A DNA stretch of 64,000 nt from Candidatus Yanofskybacteria bacterium RIFCSPHIGHO2_01_FULL_44_24 (GTDB taxonomy: Bacteria > Patescibacteriota > Minisyncoccia > 2-02-FULL-40-12 > GWA2-44-9). Location of the stretch: positions 3,170-67,169 of the forward strand of contig MGJK01000011.1 in NCBI GenBank assembly GCA_001794215.1. The letters run 5' to 3'. The notes under the pieces are model-generated. The model saw only the letters and a list, made by a program, of their open reading frames with translations. It ran no database searches and was not told the DNA's origin. Each line of letters opens with the position of its first letter. Position 1 is the first letter of the stretch. Shown here piece by piece: positions 1 through 57,835 of the stretch. A program made the position numbers and the translations under genes.

Positions 1-210
1 TTTCCTCTGGTTACTAAGATGTTTCACTTCACCAGGTATACTTCTCGCTTGCGCGAGATAATCATGGTTCACATGATTGGGTTTCCCCATTCGGTTATCT
101 CCGGATCAATGGTTGCTAGTCGCCTCCCCGAAGCTTATCGCAGACACGCCACGACCTTCATCGCCTTTTAGTGTCAAGGCATCCTCCGTACGCCCTTATG
201 AGTAATATCC
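1..210 (-). rRNA. rrl: 23S rRNA, 5' terminal part (gene continues beyond window start)
   Basis: Reverse complement of 1-200 matches conserved 23S 5' domain (GGATGCC...GGCGATGAAGG[A/T]CGTG...GATAAGC...GAAACATCTTAGTAACC). A GACCTCCCGCTGGAGGTC processing-stem-like hairpin lies at about 216-233. Confidence 0.8.
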
Positions 211-22722: not shown

Positions 22723-23361
22723 TCAAAAGCCTACTCCCGTTATAAACTTAAAGGCGAGGAAAACCAGCGGGAATATGAGCGGGAATATAAAGAACAGAAA
22801 AAATATAAATATAAACATGCTATAGCGATACATGAAATTCCTTAAACCGACCATCCTGCTCGGAAGAAAAGTCATCAGCAACCAGTGGCCGTCTAACGGC
22901 GGAATAGGAAAAAGATTAAATAAAGCCAAGACAAGGTTCAGGCTTACTATGAAAGAAAGCAGTTGAGGAATAAGAGAAGAAGAAAAAACGTCCGGAAGAA
23001 ACCTGAGAGTCAGGCCGAATAAAACAGCAAGGATAAGGTTGGTAATCGGCCCGGCAATGGCTACTTTGGCCGGTCCGTACTTTCGATCAGAGAGATTGTC
23101 GGGATTGTATGGCACCGGTTTGGCATATCCGAATATAAACGGGGCATTTACTAAAAACAAAAACAGCGGGAGAACGATGGATCCGAAAATATCCAAATGC
23201 TTAATGGGGTTAAGGGTTAGTCTCCCTAAATTTTTAGCCGTGGGGTCGCCTAATGCATTGGCAATCGCGCCATGGGCTACTTCGTGGATCACTACCGAGT
23301 AAAGAAGCACTAAAACCTGAAAGATGGCTAACAAAATATCCATACCTTGAAATGTTAGCAA
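22723..23361 (-). CDS. site-2 protease family (peptidase M50) zinc metalloprotease, membrane
   Basis: HEVAHG (HExxH) in a TM helix and the LFNLFPIPPLDGH motif. Six predicted TM segments. Confidence 0.75.
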   Translation of the reverse strand: MLTFQGMDILLAIFQVLVLLYSVVIHEVAHGAIANALGDPTAKNLGRLTLNPIKHLDIFGSIVLPLFLFLVNAPFIFGYAKPVPYNPDNLSDRKYGPAKVAIAGPITNLILAVLFGLTLRFLPDVFSSSLIPQLLSFIVSLNLVLALFNLFPIPPLDGHWLLMTFLPSRMVGLRNFMYRYSMFIFIFFLFFIFPLIFPLVFLAFKFITGVGF

Positions 23362-23362
23362 G

Positions 23363-23391
23363 TTTGGGGTATACTGACAAGCAAAATCCTA
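23363..23391 (+). promoter_or_regulatory. candidate promoter TTGAAA-17-TATACT upstream of rpmB
   Basis: CCTTGAAatgttagcaagtttggggTATACT on the plus strand in the divergent spacer. Confidence 0.3.
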
Positions 23392-23514
23392 AGCACGAAA
23401 TCCTAAATCCTAAACAAGGCTTGGAAATCTTAAATTCAAAATAATAAAAACTTTGAATTTTGGAAATTTGAGCTTAGATATTGTTTCGAATTTAGATATT
23501 CGAATTTCGAATTT

Positions 23515-23724
23515 ATGGCAACCAGATGTCCAAATTGCGGCAAAAAACCGATCATGGTCACTACTCGAAAGCTCCTTCGAGGTCATTATAATCCGACCAA
23601 CCGATCCAAGAGCTACCCAAACCTCCAATGGGCCAAGATCCAGGACAAAACAGCTCCTACTGGCTGGCGACGGGTAAAAATCTGTACTGACTGCATCAAG
23701 ACCCTCAATAAAGCCACCAAGTAA
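23515..23724 (+). CDS. rpmB: 50S ribosomal protein L28 (zinc-ribbon type)
   Basis: CPNCGKK...YNPTNRSKSYPNLQ...CTDC. L28 fold with C4 motif. Confidence 0.8.
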   Translation: MATRCPNCGKKPIMVTTRKLLRGHYNPTNRSKSYPNLQWAKIQDKTAPTGWRRVKICTDCIKTLNKATK

Positions 23725-23725
23725 A

Positions 23726-24673
23726 TTGATCAGGGAATCTATTAAGACGCAACGCGATCCTTCCATTATCTCTGAAGCCGAAGAGAGGACCTTTGGGTTA
23801 CTCGTCGAACGGCACAGAACGAACGCCATAAGGATGGAGGATTTTATAGGTAGAGAGGGTTACAGCCGAGAAGGCATAGAGCGCGACCACCTAAGCGTAG
23901 AGTCGAAAAAAGCCCGCATTAAAGAACAGGGGACAGAACCTACGAAAAGAGCCCAGATACTTGAGGCTCTGCTTGCTGAACAGATTGAACTTAGCGACTG
24001 GTTCGGGCCAAGCGCATTAACAATCCTCCCCTCCGAATATGACGACTTGTACAACGGGGTTGATACGGCTATCGAATTTGAAGACAAAGACGGTTTTCAA
24101 TATTTAGCGGCGGGAGTAGATATTACATCCTCGGCTCAAGCTGTTCAGGAAAAAATAGCTAAAATCAAAAAACGAATCGCCGAGGGGAAGTTAACAAGAA
24201 TTAAATATTTTGAGTCCGAAAGAAATAAAGATCGTAAGCCTGGCCCCTTAGAACAGGTCCCCTTGCTGATAATAGGAACTGAGGGCCGAACAATCAGAGA
24301 ACTGTCCGAACTGTGGCTTACTATCCATAGGACTAAATTGGCCAAAAAAGACGGCGGTACTGTCTTATCGGAAGAATCTCAAGCGAACCAAAGACAGATA
24401 ACTAAAGAAGCTCAGAAAAAAATAGCCGAACACCGAATTCAGATCATGCTCTTAGAGCAGATAGAAAAGCAACTGACGGTTTTCATGGAATACGCTAAAA
24501 AGATCAAGAAAAACGAAATAGCCAAGAAATATGAAGACCTGCTTGAATTAATAAGGGAGATACTCAAAGAAAAAGAGATAACTGACGAGGATCAGGAAAA
24601 AAACGAAGAAGACGCAGTAAACGCAGCGATAGAAGAGACCTTGATGCAATTTGATTCATTGCCCATAGATTAA
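23726..24673 (+). CDS. hypothetical protein (315 aa, TTG start), charged/coiled-coil C-terminal half
   Basis: Long ORF immediately after rpmB. No recognisable catalytic motif. Confidence 0.45.
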   Translation: MIRESIKTQRDPSIISEAEERTFGLLVERHRTNAIRMEDFIGREGYSREGIERDHLSVESKKARIKEQGTEPTKRAQILEALLAEQIELSDWFGPSALTILPSEYDDLYNGVDTAIEFEDKDGFQYLAAGVDITSSAQAVQEKIAKIKKRIAEGKLTRIKYFESERNKDRKPGPLEQVPLLIIGTEGRTIRELSELWLTIHRTKLAKKDGGTVLSEESQANQRQITKEAQKKIAEHRIQIMLLEQIEKQLTVFMEYAKKIKKNEIAKKYEDLLELIREILKEKEITDEDQEKNEEDAVNAAIEETLMQFDSLPID

Positions 24674-24816
24674 CCAATTCGGGCCCTCACACCCACTAAC
24701 CACCTGCTGCTTTTATTTCCACGTAAAGATAAATTGGTCCCTGATATATTTTACTTCTGAATGGGATCATGTTGCATGGCAGCTACTAAGAAACATGTGG
24801 TTAGTAGGTGTCAGGG

Positions 24817-24887
24817 CGGGCTGTCGGATAATGGTAGTCCGTACCCTTGGGGTGGGTATAGCCCGAGTTCGATTCTCGGCAGCCCGA
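24817..24887 (+). tRNA. tRNA-Pro (anticodon GGG)
   Basis: Hand-folded cloverleaf. Acceptor CGGGCTG/CAGCCCG, D-arm GGAT-AATGGTA-GTCC, anticodon arm TACCC-TTGGGGT-GGGTA, T-arm CCGAG-TTCGATT-CTCGG, discriminator A. No encoded CCA. Confidence 0.8.
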
Positions 24888-24978
24888 CTGAACGAAGTGA
24901 AGGAGGTCTCGAGCCGATTATTAAGGCGAGAGACAAGACATATTCAAAAACAGGTTCGATGCCTGTTTTTGAATTGGG
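24883..24978 (+). repeat. direct repeat copy 1: tRNA-Pro 3' end plus about 80 nt with terminator-like hairpin
   Basis: CCGACTGAACGAAGTGAAGGAGGTCTCGAGCCGATTATTAAGGCGAGAGACAAGACATATTCAAAAACAGGTTCGATGCCTGTTTTTGAAT. About 90% identical to 25723-25808. Confidence 0.7.
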
Positions 24979-25022
24979 CGGCATGGTTTACTTTGGAACT
25001 TTTTGGTGATTAAATTAAGATT

Positions 25023-25697
25023 ATGCCAGACGAATGGTCAGATCAACAATTTGCAGAAGATTGGGATAGTGGAGGTGCGACAAAACATCCTGTAAGAAAA
25101 GAGCACTTAGACATTCTCCTATCTATTATTTCGAGTAATTATTCTTCGGGTAAATATATCCTTGATTTAGGTTATGGTTCTGGCCAGGTAGAAGAAATGA
25201 TCTATCAACGGATACCAGATGCCCGAATAGTCGGAACCGACAATTCAGATGTTATGATAAGACTGTCAAAAAAGAGATTGGGCGATAAATTTTCTAAACT
25301 AACTGTTATAAATCATGGCCTAGAAAATGTAGAATCTCTCAAATTACCAAAAGTAAATTATCAATATGTAATCAGCGTCCAAGCCCTGCATCACCTGAAG
25401 CACGATCAACAGAAAGATATTTTTAAATTTGCTTATAATACCTTAGAAATAGGCGGAAGCTTTATATTTATAGATAGGATTGCCCTTGATATTAAAACAT
25501 TTGAAAAACCATATAAGGCTATCTATGAGAATATGTTCGGCAAAGCTTTTGAAGAATATGTTAAGGACATCGCGCAGAAAGAAGATTATCCAGCGAGCCC
25601 AGAAGAGCATATCGCTTGGCTAGAAAGAATCGGTTTTAAGGCTACCTGTCTAAATAAGAAATTCGACAGGGCATTCATAGTTGGCATCAAGGCTTAG
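25023..25697 (+). CDS. class I SAM-dependent methyltransferase
   Basis: Motif I ILDLGYGSGQ and post-I D (IVGTDNSD). Rossmann MTase fold spacing. Confidence 0.75.
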   Translation: MPDEWSDQQFAEDWDSGGATKHPVRKEHLDILLSIISSNYSSGKYILDLGYGSGQVEEMIYQRIPDARIVGTDNSDVMIRLSKKRLGDKFSKLTVINHGLENVESLKLPKVNYQYVISVQALHHLKHDQQKDIFKFAYNTLEIGGSFIFIDRIALDIKTFEKPYKAIYENMFGKAFEEYVKDIAQKEDYPASPEEHIAWLERIGFKATCLNKKFDRAFIVGIKA

Positions 25698-25722
25698 TTC
25701 CGTTCCAACTTCCTCCCACAAA

Positions 25723-25808
25723 GCCGACTGAAGTGAAGGAGGTCTCGAGCCGATTAAGGCGAGAGACAAGACATATTCATAAATAGGCTCGATGCCTATT
25801 TATGAATC
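25723..25808 (+). repeat. direct repeat copy 2 (att-like), without a tRNA
   Basis: CCGACTGAAGTGAAGGAGGTCTCGAGCCGATTAAGGCGAGAGACAAGACATATTCATAAATAGGCTCGATGCCTATTTATGAAT. Confidence 0.7.
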
Positions 25809-25810
25809 TA

Positions 25811-25900
25811 TATCCACCTAAAAACCGCCTTCCAGGCGAAGTTTCTTATAAGCGTGCTTTAGCCGCTTATAGAATCGCCTCCGGCGGTTTTTAGGTGGAC
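25811..25900. repeat. long imperfect hairpin (16-bp outer stem CCACCTAAAAACCGCC/GGCGGTTTTTAGGTGG)
   Basis: About 90-nt palindromic structure immediately after direct repeat copy 2. Confidence 0.5.
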
Positions 25901-26291
25901 CCATCCTTTGTCTCAAGTCTTCAGCTTTGTTTTTGAACCCGTTCTAAAGCTCTCCATTCTACTGCAATTTTAATATTTGGATTACGACTTCAAGAAAATT
26001 TTTCGACGTAGTTACCACTATGCCTTAAAATTTTCTTTTCGTCTCTTCTCAAATCTTAAAATTTCGTAACGAATAAGAACTTCAGAACGGGTTCACAGTG
26101 GGTGTCCGCAGAATAATCCCTCGGAATCCCCAAACATGAGGCTTCACCGGAATTATAGAATATAAGACTCCCCGATAAGACAATTTGTTCTAAAGCTTGG
26201 AAACAAAAGAAGAGCCTAACTTAATTATAGCAGTCCAACCGAAACTAAAAAGTGGATATCTCTACCCACTTTTTAGTAAATTAGGAGAATC

Positions 26292-26768
26292 CTACTCTCC
26301 CCTTTCAACGTCATAGTAGAAGTGAGCGTCTGGCTTATCGTAACCAAAGATCTCAGTTGTTTTAAAATAAAGTTTTATCTCCCTATAGGCGGCTTTTTCA
26401 TCTTCAGATGCATGAATTATATTCCTCGATATGGCACCACTATAGTCGCCCCTTATTGTTCCGGGAGGAGCATTCCTTCCATCAGTCGGGCCACACATAG
26501 TACGCACAACCCTTACCACCTCCAAGCCCTCCAATACAACCAGGACTACCGGCAACATTTGCATGTATTTCTTGGTCGGTTCAAAGAAATGTTTTCCCTT
26601 GTGTTGGGCATAATGCTTATCAAGCAGTAAATCAGACAGCTTAGCCATCTTCATTCCCACTATCTTTATCCCTTTCTGTTCAAACCTATCTATTATTTCA
26701 CCTACAATGCCTCGATGAATCGCATCGGGTTTTAATATAATCAACGTCCGCTGTAACTTATCTGACAT
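26292..26768 (-). CDS. ndk: nucleoside diphosphate kinase
   Basis: TLIILKPDAIHRGIVGEII... NDK fold. Confidence 0.9.
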   Translation of the reverse strand: MSDKLQRTLIILKPDAIHRGIVGEIIDRFEQKGIKIVGMKMAKLSDLLLDKHYAQHKGKHFFEPTKKYMQMLPVVLVVLEGLEVVRVVRTMCGPTDGRNAPPGTIRGDYSGAISRNIIHASEDEKAAYREIKLYFKTTEIFGYDKPDAHFYYDVERGE

Positions 26769-26770
26769 AA

Positions 26771-27637
26771 TTATTTTTCGGATGATATTAAATAATCAGT
26801 ACCATCGCTAATTAATTTAATATCGCCATTTAAATCATTCCTATAGACTTTTATATCATAATTTCCCAGCCTTTCCAATACTTCAGCTGAAGGATGGCCG
26901 TATTTGTTTTCGGCTCCAACCTGAATAATTCCGACCTGAGGTGTAACTTTATTCAAAAAATCTTCCGTAGTAGAAGTTTTTGATCCATGGTGAGCGACTT
27001 TCAAAACATCTGCATCCAAATCTACTCCGGCCAAAATAAGCTTATTCTCAACCCTTGCTTCCATATCCCCAGTCAATAAAACCCGCAGAGAACCGTACCA
27101 TAGCATCATGACGACCACATCGTTATGAGGATTGGATTCTTCTGTGCCGGCGACGGATTGAAATGGGTGAAGAAGATAAAGAACCACCCCATCGTCAAAA
27201 TTGATTTGCTTACCTATCACCGGTTCGGTTTCTTTTGCACTCTCCCCGGCTACGGCCTCTTGCCAGGCTAAGAATTGGGGCGAGTCATAAGATTCTTTGG
27301 CCTCAACAATGTTTTCCACCCGATAACGATCTAAAACGCCCATGAGTCCGGTAATATGGTCGGAATGGGGATGAGATGCCACCACCATATCAATATCCCG
27401 GTCATAAAACGGCATAACGCTTCCTATGGCCGAAAGAACCTTATTATCCGGCCCGCCATCAATCAAAATCTGATACCCGCTCGGAGTTTCGATAAATATA
27501 GAATCCCCTTGGCCGATGTCGAAGAAGTGGATTTTAAGAAGACCATCTTTTTGGGAGGCGACAGAATAGGTTGAGGATGCGAAGACGAAGAGACAGAGAA
27601 GGATGACGAAATGTATCAATTTAAGCTGTTTCGGCAT
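26771..27637 (-). CDS. secreted metallo-beta-lactamase-fold hydrolase (ComEC C-terminal-domain-like)
   Basis: Signal peptide. ASHPHSDHITGL (HxHxDH) motif. Confidence 0.7.
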   Translation of the reverse strand: MPKQLKLIHFVILLCLFVFASSTYSVASQKDGLLKIHFFDIGQGDSIFIETPSGYQILIDGGPDNKVLSAIGSVMPFYDRDIDMVVASHPHSDHITGLMGVLDRYRVENIVEAKESYDSPQFLAWQEAVAGESAKETEPVIGKQINFDDGVVLYLLHPFQSVAGTEESNPHNDVVVMMLWYGSLRVLLTGDMEARVENKLILAGVDLDADVLKVAHHGSKTSTTEDFLNKVTPQVGIIQVGAENKYGHPSAEVLERLGNYDIKVYRNDLNGDIKLISDGTDYLISSEK

Positions 27638-27696
27638 GAAAATTTAATACCATGAATTTAAATAAAAATAAAAGGACTCTTTCAAGTCCCAAGGAA

Positions 27697-28014
27697 TTAA
27701 TGTCCAGAATAGCGACTTGCTATCTTCTGGGCAGTCTTTTTGATTAGTTCTTTTTCTTCGGGAGTAGCATTCAAATCTTCCGAATTTGCAATAGCGACAA
27801 CGAGCTCAGCGGCATTTGGAGTATCCATCATAAGTCCAGTATACCCGGCACCTACAGTACCAACAACATAAATACCGTTTGGCAAGGTAACCTTTACATA
27901 CGTCACTTCTTTCTCCAAGGAACTGCATAACAACCGATTGGATATTACTACAAGTACTCCCAATTTGTCAATCATTTCACGAAGATATAAGGGTAGGTCG
28001 TCTTCTTTCCCCAC
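27697..28014 (-). CDS. hypothetical protein (105 aa)
   Basis: ORF only. Weak resemblance to roadblock/LC7-type folds, not reliable. Confidence 0.3.
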   Translation of the reverse strand: MGKEDDLPLYLREMIDKLGVLVVISNRLLCSSLEKEVTYVKVTLPNGIYVVGTVGAGYTGLMMDTPNAAELVVAIANSEDLNATPEEKELIKKTAQKIASRYSGH

Positions 28015-39019: not shown

Positions 39020-39112
39020 GGTGAATTAACCCAATTACCCTCATTGACCTAATTTCTAAAAAATTCCCAAGTCCCAAATTTAGATCAATTAGAAATTAGG
39101 ATAATGAGAAAT

Positions 39113-39379
39113 TTAAAGATCCAACTCCTGCTTAAGTTTTCTCTTCTGTTCCTCAAATGTATCTTCGTCGTATTTGCCAAGTTTTTCTAATTTTCTCCTT
39201 AATGCGCTTAGATGAAGCCCCATGATAGCGGCGTTCTTCTCCTTTCTCTCGGTTAATTTCTTCTGGCGGTATCGAGAGCTTTTTGCCTTAAGCAAAACTC
39301 CGCTTCTTTGCACGAAACGGTTAAAGCGCCTCATCAGGCTTCCGATGCTTTCGTTTTGTTTTCTTTTGACTTCAACCAT
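39113..39379 (-). CDS. rpsU: 30S ribosomal protein S21
   Basis: MVEVKRKQNESIGSLMRRFNRFVQRSGVL... S21 pattern. Confidence 0.75.
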   Translation of the reverse strand: MVEVKRKQNESIGSLMRRFNRFVQRSGVLLKAKSSRYRQKKLTERKEKNAAIMGLHLSALRRKLEKLGKYDEDTFEEQKRKLKQELDL

Positions 39380-39526: not shown

Positions 39527-39874
39527 TTACTTTACTATCTTCGGTCCCAGCTTTTTCCCGCCCAATAAATGAATGTGAAAATGGGGCACTAATTTGCCGC
39601 CATCTTCTCCTTCATTAATTATCAGCCTATATCCCTTATCGCCTAAATCAAGATCATGAGCAACCTTGTCGGCAACCATCAAGCCGCGCCCCAACAAACT
39701 TGCATCCTTGTCGGTAACCTCATGAATACTTTCAAAATGCTTTACCGGAATAATAAGCAAATGAACCGGGGCTTGCGGATTAATATCTTTAATAACCCAA
39801 AATTCGGCATCTTTATATACGGCCTCGGCTTTCAGTTCGCCTTTTATAATTTTGCAGAAAATATCGTCAATCAC
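39527..39874 (-). CDS. HIT family (histidine triad) nucleotide hydrolase
   Basis: HFHIHLLGG histidine triad. Confidence 0.85.
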   Translation of the reverse strand: MIDDIFCKIIKGELKAEAVYKDAEFWVIKDINPQAPVHLLIIPVKHFESIHEVTDKDASLLGRGLMVADKVAHDLDLGDKGYRLIINEGEDGGKLVPHFHIHLLGGKKLGPKIVK

Positions 39875-39966
39875 AGAAATTAACCTAAGTACCCTAATTG
39901 ACCTAATGTCTAAAAAAACTCCAAGCCTCGAATTCAGATCAATTAGAAATTAGAATAATTAGAAAT

Positions 39967-41250
39967 TTACTTTTTAAGCCTCTTCTTCATCTCATCCACC
40001 ACCTTAGTCAGCAACAAGGTTTCCTGAATGCCGGTATCCATTTCTCTGAGAATAATGGTTCCCTCCAGCGCTTCTTTTTGTCCAAATATAAGGGTGTATT
40101 TTACTCCGAGCCTATGGGCAATTCGCAATTGGGATTTTATGCTGTCCCGGCCGAAAGAAGATTTGACTTCAATACCGGCTTTTCTTAAATTCTCAAACAA
40201 AGCTAAGCTTTTTTTCTTGGCCGCTTCCCCAAGCTGAGCCAAAAAAACCCTGGGCTTAATGCCGATCTCGGGAACCGAAATACCCTTGGCTTTTACTTCC
40301 GAAACAACCCGGTCGATACCCATAGCCCAGCCGGCAGCCGGCGTCTTTGATCCTCCCAGCATATCAATCAATCTATCATAGCGACCGCCGGAAATAACGG
40401 CAGATTGAGCGGTAATGTTTTCTTCAGGCAAAAATTCAAAAACAGTTCTTGTATAGTAGTCGAGCCCTCTGACCAAAGAGGAATCTAATATATACGGCAC
40501 CTTGGTTTCGTCCAAGAACTCAAGAACTCTTTTGAAATGCGTCTTGCAGGTATCGTCCAGAAAATCAATTATCGGCGGGGCTTCCTTATTTACCTCTCTG
40601 CATCCTTCTTCTTTGCAGTCAAGCATTCTAAGAACGTTCTTCTTGAATCTGATCCGGCATTGAGGGCACACTTTTTTTATCTTGTTTTTATAAAAGTCCT
40701 TCAACGCCCTGAGATAAGCGGGGCGACAGCTTTGATCGCCGATACTGTTGATATGCACATTGTATCCGTGAAGACCGACGCTATCCAAAATCTTATAGCC
40801 TAAAAATATCAATTCTGCGTCAACAACTTCCGAAGCGTCTCCTATAGTTTCCAGGCCCAGCTGATAAAACTGGCGGTATCTCCCCTGTTGCGGCTGATCA
40901 TGTCTGAACATCGGACCGATGTAATAAAGCTTGACCGGATGAGGCCTGACATTCATCCCGTTTTCCAGATAAGCCCTTACCGTTGAGGCCGTCCCTTCGG
41001 GACGCAAAGAGATATCATCGCCGCCTTTGGTTTTAAAATTATATATCTCCTTTTCGGCAATATCCGAAGAACTTCCGACGGAACGCAAAAATAATTCCGT
41101 CGGTTCCACTATCGGAGTATCAATTCTTTCAAAACTGTAATCCTCAATCAGAGATTGAGATTTTTTCATCACATGGCGCCAGTATTTTTGATCCTCGGGC
41201 AGAATATCATGCATACCCTTGGGCGCCTGAATTGTTTTCTGTTTTGCCAT
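39967..41250 (-). CDS. hisS: histidine--tRNA ligase
   Basis: 427 aa class II aaRS with HisRS motifs and anticodon-binding domain. Confidence 0.9.
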   Translation of the reverse strand: MAKQKTIQAPKGMHDILPEDQKYWRHVMKKSQSLIEDYSFERIDTPIVEPTELFLRSVGSSSDIAEKEIYNFKTKGGDDISLRPEGTASTVRAYLENGMNVRPHPVKLYYIGPMFRHDQPQQGRYRQFYQLGLETIGDASEVVDAELIFLGYKILDSVGLHGYNVHINSIGDQSCRPAYLRALKDFYKNKIKKVCPQCRIRFKKNVLRMLDCKEEGCREVNKEAPPIIDFLDDTCKTHFKRVLEFLDETKVPYILDSSLVRGLDYYTRTVFEFLPEENITAQSAVISGGRYDRLIDMLGGSKTPAAGWAMGIDRVVSEVKAKGISVPEIGIKPRVFLAQLGEAAKKKSLALFENLRKAGIEVKSSFGRDSIKSQLRIAHRLGVKYTLIFGQKEALEGTIILREMDTGIQETLLLTKVVDEMKKRLKK

Positions 41251-54275: not shown

Positions 54276-54312
54276 TGTATTTTTGGGAAAGAAAATTTTT
54301 AATCAAAACCAC

Positions 54313-55809
54313 ATGAAATACATACTTTACGCTCGCAAGAGCACCGAGGATGAAGACAGACAAATTTTAAGCATTGAGGCCCAAGTCTTTGAGTTAAAAG
54401 AATTTGCCGCCAAAGAAAAACTTGAAATTGTCGCCTCTTTTCAAGAGGCAAAAACTGCCAAAGAACCTGGGCGAATTAAATTCGCAGAAATGTTGTCATT
54501 GATTGAAAAGGGTAAGGCCGAGGGCATACTTTCATGGAATCCAGACAGATTGGCAAGAAACAGCGTTGACGGCGGAAGGATAATTCACATGATTGATCGC
54601 GGCTTGATTAAGTCATTGAAATTTCCAACGTTTTGGTTTGAACCGACACCACAGGGTCTATTTATGCTCCAAATTGCTTTTGGCCAAAGTAAATATTACG
54701 TGGATGCTTTACGCGAGAATGTAACGCGTGGAATGAGGCAAAAAGTGAGAAACGGCGTATGGCCAAGCAAAGCTCCGCTCGGCTATCTCAATAATCCGAA
54801 AACCAGAGGAATTGATATTGACAGAGAAAAAGCCCAGAAAGTTAAAAAGATTTTTGAACTTTACGCCACCGGAAGCTACAACTTGCGAGAATTGGCCGAG
54901 TGGTGCAAGCGAATAAATCTTAAAAGCAATTTGGAGTGGAACATCGCCATCTCTCAAGTCCATAAAATACTCCAAAATGTTTTCTACATTGGCTTAATGA
55001 AATACAAAGGTGAAATCTACGAAGCAACCCACGAGCCGTTAATTTTAAAGAAACTTTTTGATAAAGTGCAGGAAATTATGCGAGAGAAAGGAAAACCGCA
55101 AAAAGTGAAGAAACATAATTTTGCTTTTCTTGGCTTAATGAAATGTCCGTGTTCTGCTACGATAACCGCTGAAAAGAAAATCAAGCCAAGTGGCAAAGAA
55201 TATATTTACTATCGTTGCACAAAAAAGAAAGGACCTTGCCAAGAAAAGCACTTTTTGCGGCAGGAAGAACTATACACCCAAATCAAATCTTTTCTTCAAA
55301 AAGTTTCTTTGTCGAGCCACGACACCAAGAAGGTTTTATCTGAATTAGACAAAGAGGAATCACAAGCAAAAGAACAATCAAAAATCACTGTTCAAAATCT
55401 CAAGGCCAGTTTTTCTGAAATTGAAAAGAAGCTTGAAAAACTTCTCGATGTCTATTTGGCCGAAACTATTACCGCCGAAGAATACGTTTCGCGCAAAGAA
55501 AAATTGGTCAAACAAAAGGTCGGTCTGCAAGAGCAAATCCGAGATTTTGAACAGAAAGGCCTGTCGTGGCTCGAACCGGCTCGTGAGTTCGTTTTATCCT
55601 TAAATCAAGCCTCAAAACTGCTTGAATCAGAAAACAAAACAGAAATGACAACATTTCTCAAAAATATCGGCTCGAACTGCATTTTACAGAATCGCCAACT
55701 GATTTTTTCGCCCAAAATTCAATACGAATTGGCCGCCGAGCAAAGCGAGGCGGCTTCCAATGACTTGCGGTTTTCTAAAATGTGGACCCAAGCGGACTCG
55801 AACCGCTGA
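54313..55809 (+). CDS. large serine recombinase (resolvase/invertase catalytic domain, recombinase domain, zinc ribbon and coiled coil)
   Basis: N-terminal YARKSTEDEDRQ...SIEAQ catalytic region. CPCS...C..C zinc ribbon at about aa 290-320. Start set at MKYILY. The last 36 codons lie within the IR-B right arm. Confidence 0.8.
   Translation: MKYILYARKSTEDEDRQILSIEAQVFELKEFAAKEKLEIVASFQEAKTAKEPGRIKFAEMLSLIEKGKAEGILSWNPDRLARNSVDGGRIIHMIDRGLIKSLKFPTFWFEPTPQGLFMLQIAFGQSKYYVDALRENVTRGMRQKVRNGVWPSKAPLGYLNNPKTRGIDIDREKAQKVKKIFELYATGSYNLRELAEWCKRINLKSNLEWNIAISQVHKILQNVFYIGLMKYKGEIYEATHEPLILKKLFDKVQEIMREKGKPQKVKKHNFAFLGLMKCPCSATITAEKKIKPSGKEYIYYRCTKKKGPCQEKHFLRQEELYTQIKSFLQKVSLSSHDTKKVLSELDKEESQAKEQSKITVQNLKASFSEIEKKLEKLLDVYLAETITAEEYVSRKEKLVKQKVGLQEQIRDFEQKGLSWLEPAREFVLSLNQASKLLESENKTEMTTFLKNIGSNCILQNRQLIFSPKIQYELAAEQSEAASNDLRFSKMWTQADSNR
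55689..55785. repeat. IR-B right arm (overlaps the recombinase C-terminus and 3 nt of tRNA-Ala)
   Basis: Reverse complement is identical to 54179-54275. Confidence 0.85.
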
Positions 55810-55855
55810 CCCCCTCATTGCAAATGAGGTGCTCTACCAGCTGAGCTATGGGCCC
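55783..55855 (-). tRNA. tRNA-Ala (anticodon TGC)
   Basis: Minus strand GGGCCCATAGCTCAGCTGGTAGAGCACCTCATTTGCAATGAGGGGGTCAGCGGTTCGAGTCCGCTTGGGTCCA. Cloverleaf folds by hand. Confidence 0.9.
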
Positions 55856-55884
55856 ACCCTTGCTATCGAGGATCCTCGATTTCA
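55856..55884. repeat. direct repeat 1 containing the perfect 16-bp palindrome ATCGAGGATCCTCGAT
   Basis: GGCCCACCCTTGCTATCGAGGATCCTCGAT (including the tRNA 5' end). Repeated at 56243-56278. Confidence 0.7.
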
Positions 55885-55920
55885 CTATTATATTAAAATT
55901 GTAAATCGGGACAAACAAGG

Positions 55921-55948
55921 CGCTCTACCAGCTAAGCTAACGGCCCCT
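55921..55948 (-). pseudogene. tRNA 5'-half fragment (tRNA-Ala-like acceptor and D-arm only)
   Basis: Minus strand GGGGCCGTTAGCTTAGCTGGTAGAGCGC matches the tRNA-Ala 5' half, then diverges. Confidence 0.5.
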
Positions 55949-55960
55949 GCACCCAGAAAG

Positions 55961-56215
55961 CTATGCCAAAGAGTTTTTAATTCTTCGCTTTAGCTGGGTA
56001 TGTGCCTGCGAAAACCTTTTTAAGTTTTCTTCCCGATATTTGGCATCTTTCTCGGATTTATAATACTCGCAATATATCAACTCGTATGGACCCTTATTCT
56101 TGGTGGCTGTACTTTGGTTTTTATTATGTTCTGCTAATCTTCTCTCCAGGTTGGCAGTATAGCCTATATACAACGAGTTATCTTTGAGGCTTTTGATTAA
56201 ATATATACAGAACAT
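55961..56215 (-). CDS. GIY-YIG nuclease domain protein (84 aa)
   Basis: IYLIKSLKDNSLYIGYTANLERRLAEHN: GIY...YIG, R, E/H/N spacing. Confidence 0.75.
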   Translation of the reverse strand: MFCIYLIKSLKDNSLYIGYTANLERRLAEHNKNQSTATKNKGPYELIYCEYYKSEKDAKYREENLKRFSQAHTQLKRRIKNSLA

Positions 56216-56242
56216 AATATTAGCTTCCTGGGTGAGGGGCTA

Positions 56243-56278
56243 ACGGCCCATCATTATTTATCGAGGATCCTCGATCTG
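56243..56278. repeat. direct repeat 2 with the same 16-bp palindrome
   Basis: GGCCCATCATTATTTATCGAGGATCCTCGAT. Confidence 0.7.
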
Positions 56279-56362
56279 ACTACTGCAGTCGGTGTGTTTT
56301 ACAAAAAATGTAAAATCGTTTATATTTTATCACAGATTTTTAACATTTAAAAGCGGGGCTCC

Positions 56363-56719
56363 GTGAGCGAAAATCAGAAAGATTCACCCATTACAATCAC
56401 TGAAAAAGCGGCTGAAAAACTTCTCAAGCTGATAAAGGATAAGGATTTAACTCCCGATAAAGCATTCCTCAGAGTTTTCATACACGGAGGCGGATGCTCC
56501 GGATTCCAGTATGGCCTGATGCTCGAAGGCAGTCCTTCGGAAAACGATAAAATTTTTGAATCGAACGGAGCAAAAATCGTAATTGATCCTATCAGCCTCA
56601 GATATCTCAAGGGTGCGGAAGTAGATTTATCAAATGACCTGATGGAAAGTTTCACGATAAAGAATCCTAATGCCAAGTCAACTTGCGGCTGCGGACAGTC
56701 ATTCCAGCCCGAAAATTAA
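56363..56719 (+). CDS. erpA: iron-sulfur cluster insertion protein (HesB/IscA/ErpA family)
   Basis: GGGCSGFQY ... CGCGQSF conserved Cys triad. Confidence 0.85.
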   Translation: MSENQKDSPITITEKAAEKLLKLIKDKDLTPDKAFLRVFIHGGGCSGFQYGLMLEGSPSENDKIFESNGAKIVIDPISLRYLKGAEVDLSNDLMESFTIKNPNAKSTCGCGQSFQPEN

Positions 56720-56727
56720 GCAACTCA

Positions 56728-57705
56728 TTAAGAGTTGCTTTTTAAATACCCGAGAACCAATGCCTTTGCTTCGTCGATACTTTTGCTGTCCATCAATTGA
56801 GCCCGCAAATCCTTAGCTCCCGGCCAATCATTGATGTATATTTTGAAAAACCTCTTGAGCGTATCGAAGTTTTTGACGGTGGTCTTATCCTCTCCCTTCC
56901 ATAGTTTTGAAAAATTGTCGCAATGCTGAAGCATCAACTTAATCTTATCTTTCGGCCTGATTGAGTCCGGTTTGATATTTTCGTTGAAAAACCACGGATT
57001 GTTAAATATACCGCGCCCGATCATAATCCCGTCCAATTTATACTCGGATGCTTTTTGTCTTGCTTCCGCCATATCCTTTATATCGCCATTACCGACAACT
57101 AAAGTACCAACGGGCTTGGCCATTTCGGCTATCTTTCCCATCTCATCCCAATGAGCAGGGACAGAGGACATCTCTTTACGGGTCCGCCCATGAACTACAA
57201 GCGCGGCGATCCCCTCTTCGACAAGATGGGGTATCCACGATTCAGTTTCAATTTTATTGTAACCGAGCCGAGTCTTCACCGATATCGGCAAAGAGCCGGC
57301 AACTTGTTTTGCCGCCTTAATTAACGCGCGAGCCAATTTAGGATTTTTTATAAGCGCAGCCCCCGCTCCTTGTTTCTCGATAGACCTGTCCGGGCATCCC
57401 ATATTTATATCAACCCCGTCAAAACCCATTTTTACAGCCATCTCAACGCATCTTTTAAGTTTCTCCGGATCAGCAGTGAAGAACTGAGCAACGATAGGCC
57501 TTTCATTTTTTTCAAAATAAAGCTCGCCCCTGAATTTTTCCGGACCTAAAGCACAGATACCGTCGCATGAAACAAATTCAGTATAGAATACGTCCGGTCT
57601 TCCGGTCTGAATAATTATCTGCCTGAAAGCCCAATCGGTAACATTAGCCATCGGTGCCAGAACCGTAAAAGGCTTATTCAATTTTCCCCAGAAACCATAG
57701 TTCAT
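56728..57705 (-). CDS. dus: tRNA-dihydrouridine synthase
   Basis: TIM-barrel Dus motifs (LAPMANVTD, catalytic Cys in GCP). Confidence 0.85.
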   Translation of the reverse strand: MNYGFWGKLNKPFTVLAPMANVTDWAFRQIIIQTGRPDVFYTEFVSCDGICALGPEKFRGELYFEKNERPIVAQFFTADPEKLKRCVEMAVKMGFDGVDINMGCPDRSIEKQGAGAALIKNPKLARALIKAAKQVAGSLPISVKTRLGYNKIETESWIPHLVEEGIAALVVHGRTRKEMSSVPAHWDEMGKIAEMAKPVGTLVVGNGDIKDMAEARQKASEYKLDGIMIGRGIFNNPWFFNENIKPDSIRPKDKIKLMLQHCDNFSKLWKGEDKTTVKNFDTLKRFFKIYINDWPGAKDLRAQLMDSKSIDEAKALVLGYLKSNS

Positions 57706-57761
57706 AAAAGCACATTAGTATAGAAAAACCCTCCGCCGAGGATTTTTCTATACTACTAATG

Positions 57762-57835
57762 TGCGCATGCCTGGATTTGAACCAGGGACCTCGTCATTAT
57801 CAGTGACGCGCTCTAACCAGCTGAGCTACATGCGC
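57762..57835 (-). tRNA. tRNA-Ile (anticodon GAT)
   Basis: Minus strand GCGCATGTAGCTCAGCTGGTTAGAGCGCGTCACTGATAATGACGAGGTCCCTGGTTCAAATCCAGGCATGCGCA. Confidence 0.9.

Follow-up and report, generated by a model that had tools for sequence, protein, structure and literature searches.

How a single small gene came to lie directly beside a tRNA gene, between two copies of a sequence that begins at the very end of that tRNA, is the question raised by a locus of Candidatus Yanofskybacteria bacterium RIFCSPHIGHO2_01_FULL_44_24. The stretch analysed, here called the window, comprises 64,000 nt of contig MGJK01000011.1, and the locus lies at its positions 24,817 to 25,808. An initial annotation described there a tRNA-Pro(GGG) gene followed by direct repeats that bracket one S-adenosylmethionine (SAM) methyltransferase gene. 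This was borne out, a single open reading frame (ORF) at 25023-25697 (Methyltransf_25/11) lying between the copies R1 and R2 of the repeat R. Comparison with sister species showed that the gene is an insertion at the 3' flank of tRNA-Pro, in a slot that holds different cargo in different species. The explanation tentatively preferred here is that the methyltransferase entered this slot by a crossover within a module formed by the tRNA trailer and its terminator, and that the bracket is now a fixed and immobile scar. Loci fetched for comparison carry L numbers; L029-L031, L032/L033 and L034 are sister-species loci found via ndk, and L045 is a strain variant.

The repeat pair and its hairpins

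The features of the locus are as follows.
24817-24887 (end 24887/8), + strand: tRNA-Pro(GGG), found by ARAGORN and Rfam, CCA not encoded; left border of the cargo slot.
24882-24974, + strand: R1, the proximal repeat copy, 93 nt, made up of the final 6 nt of the tRNA gene and a trailer that holds hairpin 1 and the terminator-like hairpin 2.
24906-24934 (R1) and 25742-25767 (R2), + strand: hairpin 1, conserved in both copies.
24942-24974 (R1) and 25775-25807 (R2), + strand: hairpin 2, 14 bp, terminator-like.
25005-25697, + strand: cargo unit, consisting of a GGTGAT ribosome-binding site and the ORF (25023-25697) of a 224-aa class I SAM methyltransferase.
25723-25807, + strand: R2, the distal repeat copy, 85 nt, beginning 25 nt past the methyltransferase stop codon.

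The initial annotation had placed a repeat of ~95 bp with ~90% identity at 24883-24978 and 25723-25808. Two direct copies were confirmed by a repeat finder and by direct alignment, and their limits were corrected to 24882-24974 and 25723-25807. R1 and R2 agree without a mismatch in two blocks, of 27 nt and 23 nt, each of which occurs exactly twice in the window and twice in none of 100 shuffles. In a global alignment, 80 of the 85 aligned bases are identical (94%), with 8 gap positions in three indels, which corresponds to ~86% identity over the full length. The last 10 nt of tRNA-Pro had been assigned to the repeat; the overlap is only GCC(C)GA, i.e. 5-6 nt with a 1-nt indel. In the 65 nt upstream of R2, similarity to the tRNA is at the level of chance (998 and 859 of 2000 shuffles score equally well), and hence a decayed tRNA fragment at this position was rejected. 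The short overlap and the dissimilarity of the sequence upstream of R2 to a tRNA indicate that the duplicated unit, judged from its sequence, is the tRNA trailer with its terminator and not the tRNA 3' end.

Each copy folds as two hairpins, with folding z-scores of -5.0 (R1) and -5.7 (R2), and R folds much better than shuffled sequence on either strand, most of all on the + strand. One terminator-like hairpin per copy had been annotated; the 14-bp hairpin was found in both, but a second conserved hairpin per copy had been overlooked. All five substitutions between R1 and R2 lie within the hairpin 2 stem, where no pair is lost (A-U to U-A, C-G to U-A, and U.G to C-G), as two compensatory double changes and one U.G to C-G change. 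Both 3-nt indels fall in unpaired stretches, and the two hairpins are spared by all seven differences. By a substitution-placement simulation, five randomly placed substitutions would hit stems alone and preserve all pairs with a probability of ~3e-5; the simulation was used in place of a shuffle control for covariation that is uninformative with two sequences (124/500). Therefore, the hairpins have been maintained, by selection or by self-templated correction of the palindrome.

The inner stem of hairpin 2 in R1, CAGGU/GCCUG, is followed by UUUUUGAAUU, and in R2 the U run is broken, UUUAUGAAU. A terminator scan called both copies of hairpin 2 on the minus strand only, since the T run lies inside the long stem. 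Hairpin 2 is regarded as a putative terminator. Its apex (24951-24965 and 25784-25798), CAGG-TTCGATG-CCTG with CTCGATG in R2, resembles a tRNA T-arm, with a TTCGA loop closed by G-C; the orthologous hairpins of L029, L032 and L034 lack it, and the resemblance may be due to chance.

A covariance model of R, run over the window with filters off, gave R1 and R2 as the only strong matches (118 and 110 bits), the next-best match at 27 bits being a generic terminator hairpin. Neither the model nor blastn detected R in L029, L032 or L034, and the ~68 kb of sister loci contained no copy. An exact-core scan for GGTCTCGAGCCG-N(3-12)-GGCGAGAGAC gave 0 matches in viral contigs, 3 in metagenome contigs and 2 in species-representative genomes, all five being unrelated sequences; the three collections did not contain the source genome, and the scans are silent on further copies of R in that genome. 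Thus, no third copy was found in the 64-kb window, the related loci or the three public collections. The widespread intergenic repeat that the initial annotation had named as the case against its own proposal was not seen within the 64 kb. Rfam, searched with the window and the sister loci in gathering and E-value modes, contains no family matching R or the neighbouring non-coding RNA (ncRNA).

Other intergenic modules of the window do recur. At least eight modules of ~120 nt each, 72-95% identical, form a family (5293, 7001, 7527, 10648, 11409, 13405, 14625 and 36455), each of which carries a terminator-like hairpin together with a conserved leader running up to the start codon of a gene on the minus strand. 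A second pair of direct repeats, 92 nt long, 86% identical and hairpin-containing, lies at 39024-39115 and 39878-39969 and encloses two housekeeping genes, hinT (39527-39874) and rpsU/S21 (39113-39379), so that foreign cargo is not all that lies between such repeats in this genome. As intergenic modules are freely reused here, a repeat bracket alone is no proof of mobility.

Cargo of the tRNA-Pro slot

The elements that adjoin or delimit the slot are listed below.
24683-24817, strand not assigned: 135-nt element whose imperfect inverted arms measure 30 nt; it adjoins tRNA-Pro on the 5' side, and its last base touches the tRNA.
25813-25899, strand not assigned: hairpin A, with 17-bp perfect arms and the arm core CCGCC/GGCGG.
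25898-26217, - strand: structured ncRNA, rod-like and 6S-like, with a conserved promoter-like TATAAT at 26224-26229 (-); right border of the slot.
26292-26768, - strand: ndk (nucleoside diphosphate kinase), the syntenic anchor for the sister loci.

The gene order from a metallo-beta-lactamase-fold gene (MBL) and ndk to the genes for an M50 peptidase, S12, S7 and EF-G is conserved in the sister species, and an orthologous tRNA-Pro is present in L029, L032 and L034. In L029-L031, the ndk product shares 85% amino acid identity with that of the window and the upstream gene (hyp304) is orthologous at 44%. Here hyp304 is followed by tRNA-Pro, 43 nt with one hairpin, the ncRNA and ndk, without a methyltransferase. 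Relative to the syntenic L029 locus, the methyltransferase gene is an insertion at the tRNA-Pro 3' flank. In L034, three other genes lie between tRNA-Pro and the ncRNA. In L032/L033, an unrelated 256-aa gene occupies the slot, and a 36-nt terminator palindrome occurs in two identical copies 1302 nt apart, one immediately following tRNA-Pro and the other immediately preceding the ncRNA. The interval from tRNA-Pro to the ncRNA is a variable cargo slot in Yanofskybacteria, and given the palindrome pair around a different cargo in L032, two species have therefore acquired a duplicated-terminator bracket at this slot.

The initial annotation had proposed looking in relatives for an empty site with a single copy of the repeat. 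An empty tRNA-Pro site is present in L029-L031, but it contains no copy of R; the comparison is one between different species with diverged intergenic DNA, in which only the type of the hairpin 2 core is common. This core, AAAACAGG..CCTGTTTT, matches the tRNA-Pro trailer (proximal) hairpins of L034 and L032, and in R1 the core together with its 3' flank resembles the trailers of these loci, so that R1 looks native to the slot. In its arm core, and in its 3' arm with flank, hairpin A is similar to the one hairpin of L029 and to the distal one of L034. We read hairpin A as the counterpart of these two hairpins, and it probably terminates the convergent minus-strand ncRNA. The likeness of hairpin 2 to the proximal hairpins of L034 and L032, and of hairpin A to those of L029 and L034 (distal), suggests an ancestral terminator pair with cargo between.

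The methyltransferase and Ndk proteins are encoded on many groundwater metagenome contigs from Rifle and in two metagenome-assembled genomes (GCA_001795655.1 and GCA_001794475.1). Twenty fetched population loci, taken from contigs carrying the methyltransferase or ndk and compared as contigs, not reads, are 99.9-100% identical over the stretch in common with window positions 23001-28000. All fetched loci that span the site carry R1, the gene and R2. The strain variant L045, with 99% protein identity, differs by three single-nucleotide polymorphisms, none of them in R, and was set aside as not informative.

The cargo has a GC content of ~35%, as compared with 39-47% in the flanks. Its ORF matches generic class I SAM methyltransferase domains (Methyltransf_25/11), and all its NCBIfam scores are far below the curated cut-offs. 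The nearest solved structures, by sequence and by fold, are CysG, BelI and MM_2633 (top PDB matches CysG, BelI and 3dtn). A structure model with a predicted local distance difference test score (pLDDT) of 93.4 gave Foldseek TM-scores of 0.73-0.85 to CysG/BelI/MM_2633 and 0.79-0.83 to CmoA. In 25 homologues, H123 and D188 are invariant and H124 is nearly so. A His-His-Asp metal triad has been described in CysG/BelI (PMC11408123). H123, H124 and D188 appear to form this triad, being matched to H121, H122 and D190 of CysG by similar numbering, not residue by residue. The cargo thus shares the class I Rossmann fold and the metal-triad positions with the O-methyltransferases CysG, BelI and MM_2633 and with CmoA, but differs from them in an identity of only 16-26% and in the sub-threshold NCBIfam scores. 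Its closeness to CysG, BelI and MM_2633 and the triad positions argue that it is probably a small-molecule and not a DNA methyltransferase, and the family assignment called for by the initial annotation is a CysG/BelI/MM_2633/CmoA-like class I SAM methyltransferase. A phage origin was rejected, as no relative was found in viral contigs.

Orthologues of the methyltransferase (63-79% amino acid identity) sit in at least five other gene contexts, namely between murE and small genes (in L021 directly 3' of tRNA-Glu(CTC)), between frr and rseP, after secA, after an AAA_18 kinase gene, and elsewhere. They are always co-oriented with the upstream gene, and DNA homology at these loci is limited to the ORF +/- ~20 nt, including the GGTGAT ribosome-binding site. 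R was found beside none of the orthologues in other contexts. In L021-L024, from a sister species, the orthologue starts 76 nt past tRNA-Glu(CTC) with no terminator between them (L021, 4849-5001). The gene is therefore placed directly 3' of a tRNA gene in 2 of ~6 contexts. Judged by accession proximity, the L032 species apparently carries an orthologue at the murE - tRNA-Glu locus.

Origin of the bracket

The preferred explanation starts from a resident slot of variable cargo between the convergent tRNA-Pro(GGG) and minus-strand ncRNA beside ndk. A unit consisting of one ribosome-binding site and ORF would have entered it by a single crossover inside the tRNA-proximal trailer/terminator module, as in Campbell-type integration of a circular intermediate. 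The crossover could have occurred by homologous recombination after DNA uptake or through a trans-acting recombinase, and would have left one copy of the module on each side, i.e. R1 and R2. Both copies would have been retained because each has work to do, R1 in ending the tRNA-Pro precursor and R2 in ending the methyltransferase transcript and shielding the convergent ncRNA. The present state would be a fixed, immobile scar and not an active mobile element. Integration within the module is favoured by the layout A-B-A, with A across both junctions, which arises most simply from a resident A and a circular A+B. The lower GC content of the cargo, the varied content of the slot, the orthologues in at least five contexts and the recurrence in L032 all count for an insertion. 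The native look of R1, the structure-preserving differences between R1 and R2, and the restriction of strong matches to R to these two copies in 64 kb likewise count for the preferred explanation. The gene for the competence protein ComEC lies 5 kb from the locus. Natural competence was shown in a study of cultivated bacteria of the candidate phyla radiation (CPR) (PMC10187176). Both points count for the preferred explanation.

Several observations weigh against this explanation. The empty site in L029 lacks R, and a 51-nt segment containing hairpin 1 has no counterpart in any other species, so that R may be younger than the insertion. The one hairpin of L029 seems to join the left flank of a proximal hairpin to the core of a distal one; the 'empty' site may hence be the product of a deletion, and the change could have run in the opposite direction. 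No empty allele, donor molecule or circular form was seen among the fetched population contigs spanning the locus. Hairpin 2 of R1 would end transcripts upstream of the methyltransferase, and no promoter-like site was found between the two. Finally, the 50-nt 5' part of R is perfectly conserved save two indels in unpaired stretches, which hints at a function beyond termination.

In another proposal, R is a functional RNA module, either a trailer-derived small RNA or a processing or stability element, and a local duplication or gene conversion would have placed a second copy at the 3' end of the methyltransferase once this gene was present; the bracket would then be regulatory and not a scar. 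The strictly structure-preserving divergence, the fully identical 27-nt and 23-nt blocks around hairpin 1, the strong folding of both strands of R with the + strand best, the reuse of intergenic modules in this genome (the ~120-nt family of at least eight copies and the 92-nt pair at hinT/rpsU) and the T-loop-like TTCGATG of hairpin 2, closed by G-C, are all consistent with such a module. It is rather unlikely all the same, since Rfam has no match, the hairpin 1 segment is conserved in no sister species, the T-loop-like motif is missing from the orthologous hairpins of L029, L032 and L034, and the same bracket made of a plain palindrome in L032 is left unexplained. Direct repeats around one compact gene at a tRNA flank, the same architecture with other cargo in L032, and the methyltransferase directly 3' of tRNA-Glu in a sister species would also be expected if R were the attachment site of a small cassette, with R1 and R2 as attL and attR, that is recombined site-specifically in trans by a tyrosine/Xer-type or hairpin-recognising enzyme and may still excise. 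Hairpin 1 is shaped like a recombinase core site, with 11-nt imperfect inverted arms and a spacer of 6-9 nt, and dif modules of Acinetobacter are known as trans-mobilised units flanked by recombination sites, as described in two reports (PMC6449649, PMC7399989). However, only serine recombinases were found in the parts examined, none of the fetched contigs covering the locus has an empty or excised allele, orthologues in other contexts lack R, and R was absent from the viral, metagenome and species-representative collections as scanned by exact core. Furthermore, the hairpin 1 spacers of R1 and R2 show a 3-nt difference, a mismatch that would impair two core sites working as a pair. An attachment site is accordingly considered unlikely.

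The remaining proposals make the bracket either coincidental or old. Membership of R in a dispersed family of REP/MITE-like terminator repeats, with two copies adjacent by coincidence, would suit a genome rich in repeated intergenic hairpin modules and the species-specific hairpin insertions in the same intergenic region (24683-24817, the loop of 25813-25899, and 25932-26097), and the outer stem of hairpin 2, ATTCAAAA..TTTTGAAT, resembles the stem of the 8-copy family. It is very unlikely, given that the unfiltered covariance model found two above-noise copies only in 64 kb and none in ~68 kb of sister loci, that the exact-core scans gave chance matches only, and that R1 and R2 bracket precisely the gene inserted relative to L029, a pattern repeated in L032. 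If instead the methyltransferase were ancestral at the slot and lost from the sister species by deletion between terminators, the repeat being an old local duplication, the hairpin of L029 would be accounted for, as its proximal left flank (CATCGGAAATTAAAA, identical to L034) joined to a distal-type core is what a terminator-terminator deletion would leave. The presence of the gene in at least five other contexts in relatives, the unrelated cargo in the L032 and L034 slots, and the GC content of the cargo below that of the flanks make this highly doubtful. A further idea, distinctly unlikely, is that tRNA-adjacent terminator hairpins serve in CPR bacteria as recombination sites for integrase-less cassettes, a promoter-less ORF being swapped between tRNA-flank slots by an enzyme that works in trans on the terminator, in its folded or palindromic form, and duplicates it upon insertion. 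Hints of this are the position of the methyltransferase at tRNA-Pro here and at tRNA-Glu in a sister species, and the L032 slot with other cargo in the same bracket. If true, terminator-hairpin cassettes would give an ultra-small genome a counterpart to the exchange of integron cassettes or dif modules.

Insertion within the trailer/terminator module thus retains part of the att-like cassette of the initial annotation, namely an insertion at the tRNA flank with duplication of the site, varied cargo and a second bracket in L032, but the tRNA 3' end is not duplicated and the empty site lacks R. Also against the att-like reading, for which a decayed island or a cassette mobilised in trans had been offered, are the absence of polymorphism among the fetched contigs that cover the locus, orthologues elsewhere without R, and the lack of an integrase nearby. 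Nothing in the data points to current mobility or to a role of a serine recombinase.

The locus resembles genomic islands inserted in tRNA genes by tyrosine integrases in having cargo 3' of a tRNA, a bracket of direct repeats, a cargo-free related site, and different cargo in each species. It differs in that the cargo is a single 0.7-kb gene, no integrase lies within ~6 kb, the repeat takes 5-6 nt of the tRNA and consists otherwise of trailer and terminator, the empty site has no repeat copy that could represent attB, and no presence/absence polymorphism was seen in the population. With integron cassettes and integrase-less attC clusters it shares a recombinase-free unit, a compact ORF without an obvious promoter, an ~85-nt structured imperfect palindrome 25 nt after the ORF and a similar site in the same orientation before it. 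However, no IntI, attI or Pc is present within ~6 kb, there is one cassette only, and R forms two separate hairpins, not one bulged stem, and by inspection lacks the R''/R' core (RYYYAAC / GTTRRRY). The Xer-dependent dif modules of Acinetobacter likewise consist of one or more genes flanked by short sites without a recombinase of their own, and hairpin 1 has a comparable layout of 11-nt arms and a 6-9 nt spacer. Sites of this kind (pdif) are 28 bp long, have a conserved XerC/XerD consensus and are usually inverted around modules; R is chromosomal, directly oriented and without a pdif-like sequence. REP/BIME and Correia-type repeats share with R extragenic hairpins at gene 3' ends that are probable terminators or stabilisers, and true multi-copy families occur in this genome, whereas R has two neighbouring copies in 64 kb and is not a simple palindrome, hairpin 1 giving it a direction.

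Little is understood of how ultra-small CPR genomes acquire single genes, since classical mobile elements have rarely been seen in them. A slot between a tRNA and a convergent ncRNA offers a concrete, testable case of small-scale gene gain, whose scar could be looked for in other CPR genomes. Should the duplication prove mechanistic and not incidental, it would point to terminator hairpins as sites of insertion; if not, the locus would be an ordinary tRNA-flank islet.

Recombinases and other elements near the slot

As the initial annotation had stated, no integrase is present at the locus: none was called within ~6 kb on either side (Pfam on neighbouring ORFs and precomputed Pfam for called genes). 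The serine recombinase that it had placed at 54.3 kb is indeed a large serine recombinase, and overlaps a tRNA gene.
54283-55809, + strand: large serine recombinase (Resolvase, Recombinase and Zn ribbon), 29 kb from the locus; overlaps the tRNA-Ala 3' end.
55782-55855, - strand: tRNA-Ala(TGC), its 3' end overlapped by the recombinase gene.

At 55912-55946 there is an orphan 5' half of a tRNA-Ala-like sequence, truncated at the anticodon loop, and no matching 3' half was found in the window. The region 54283-55946 looks like the footprint of an element integrated in a tRNA gene. Large serine recombinases exchange strands at a 2-bp core and leave no direct repeats of ~90 bp. Since such enzymes leave no long direct repeats, and since this one has its own footprint at tRNA-Ala, it is unlikely to have mobilised the cassette, as had been suggested, and it was rejected as the agent. 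Compared with elements of this class, the recombinase is 29 kb away and not at one end, and R is a direct repeat of 85-93 nt, not a short core.

In L003, L005, L014 and L016, from the same population, a different large serine recombinase (598 aa, 21% identical to that of the window) is inserted at window position ~27410, within the MBL gene (26771-27637) next to ndk, which is truncated from 288 to 214 aa. An AbiEii gene lies further along from it, and in L034, from another species, a recombinase is found at the same place.

The ncRNA at the right border of the slot, ~155-165 nt long and located between the cargo and ndk, is kept in four Yanofskybacteria species. Its closing stem comprises ~25 bp, and compensatory changes occur in 14 of the 44 predicted pairs; Rfam gave no match to it, whether at gathering score or at E<10. 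Only in this species is the ncRNA interrupted by a near-perfect, MITE-like hairpin of 165 nt (25932-26097), which is absent from L029, L032 and L034 and has no other copy in the window. The 135-nt element 5' of tRNA-Pro is missing in L029, in which the upstream gene and the tRNA are only 12 nt apart.

The 5' end of a 23S rRNA gene lies at the edge of the window (1-209, - strand), and no 16S rRNA was detected in the window. The genes for tRNA-Ile and tRNA-Ala (55782-57835) lie 1.9 kb apart and enclose a dus gene (56728-57705), which is an unusual arrangement for rRNA-linked tRNAs.

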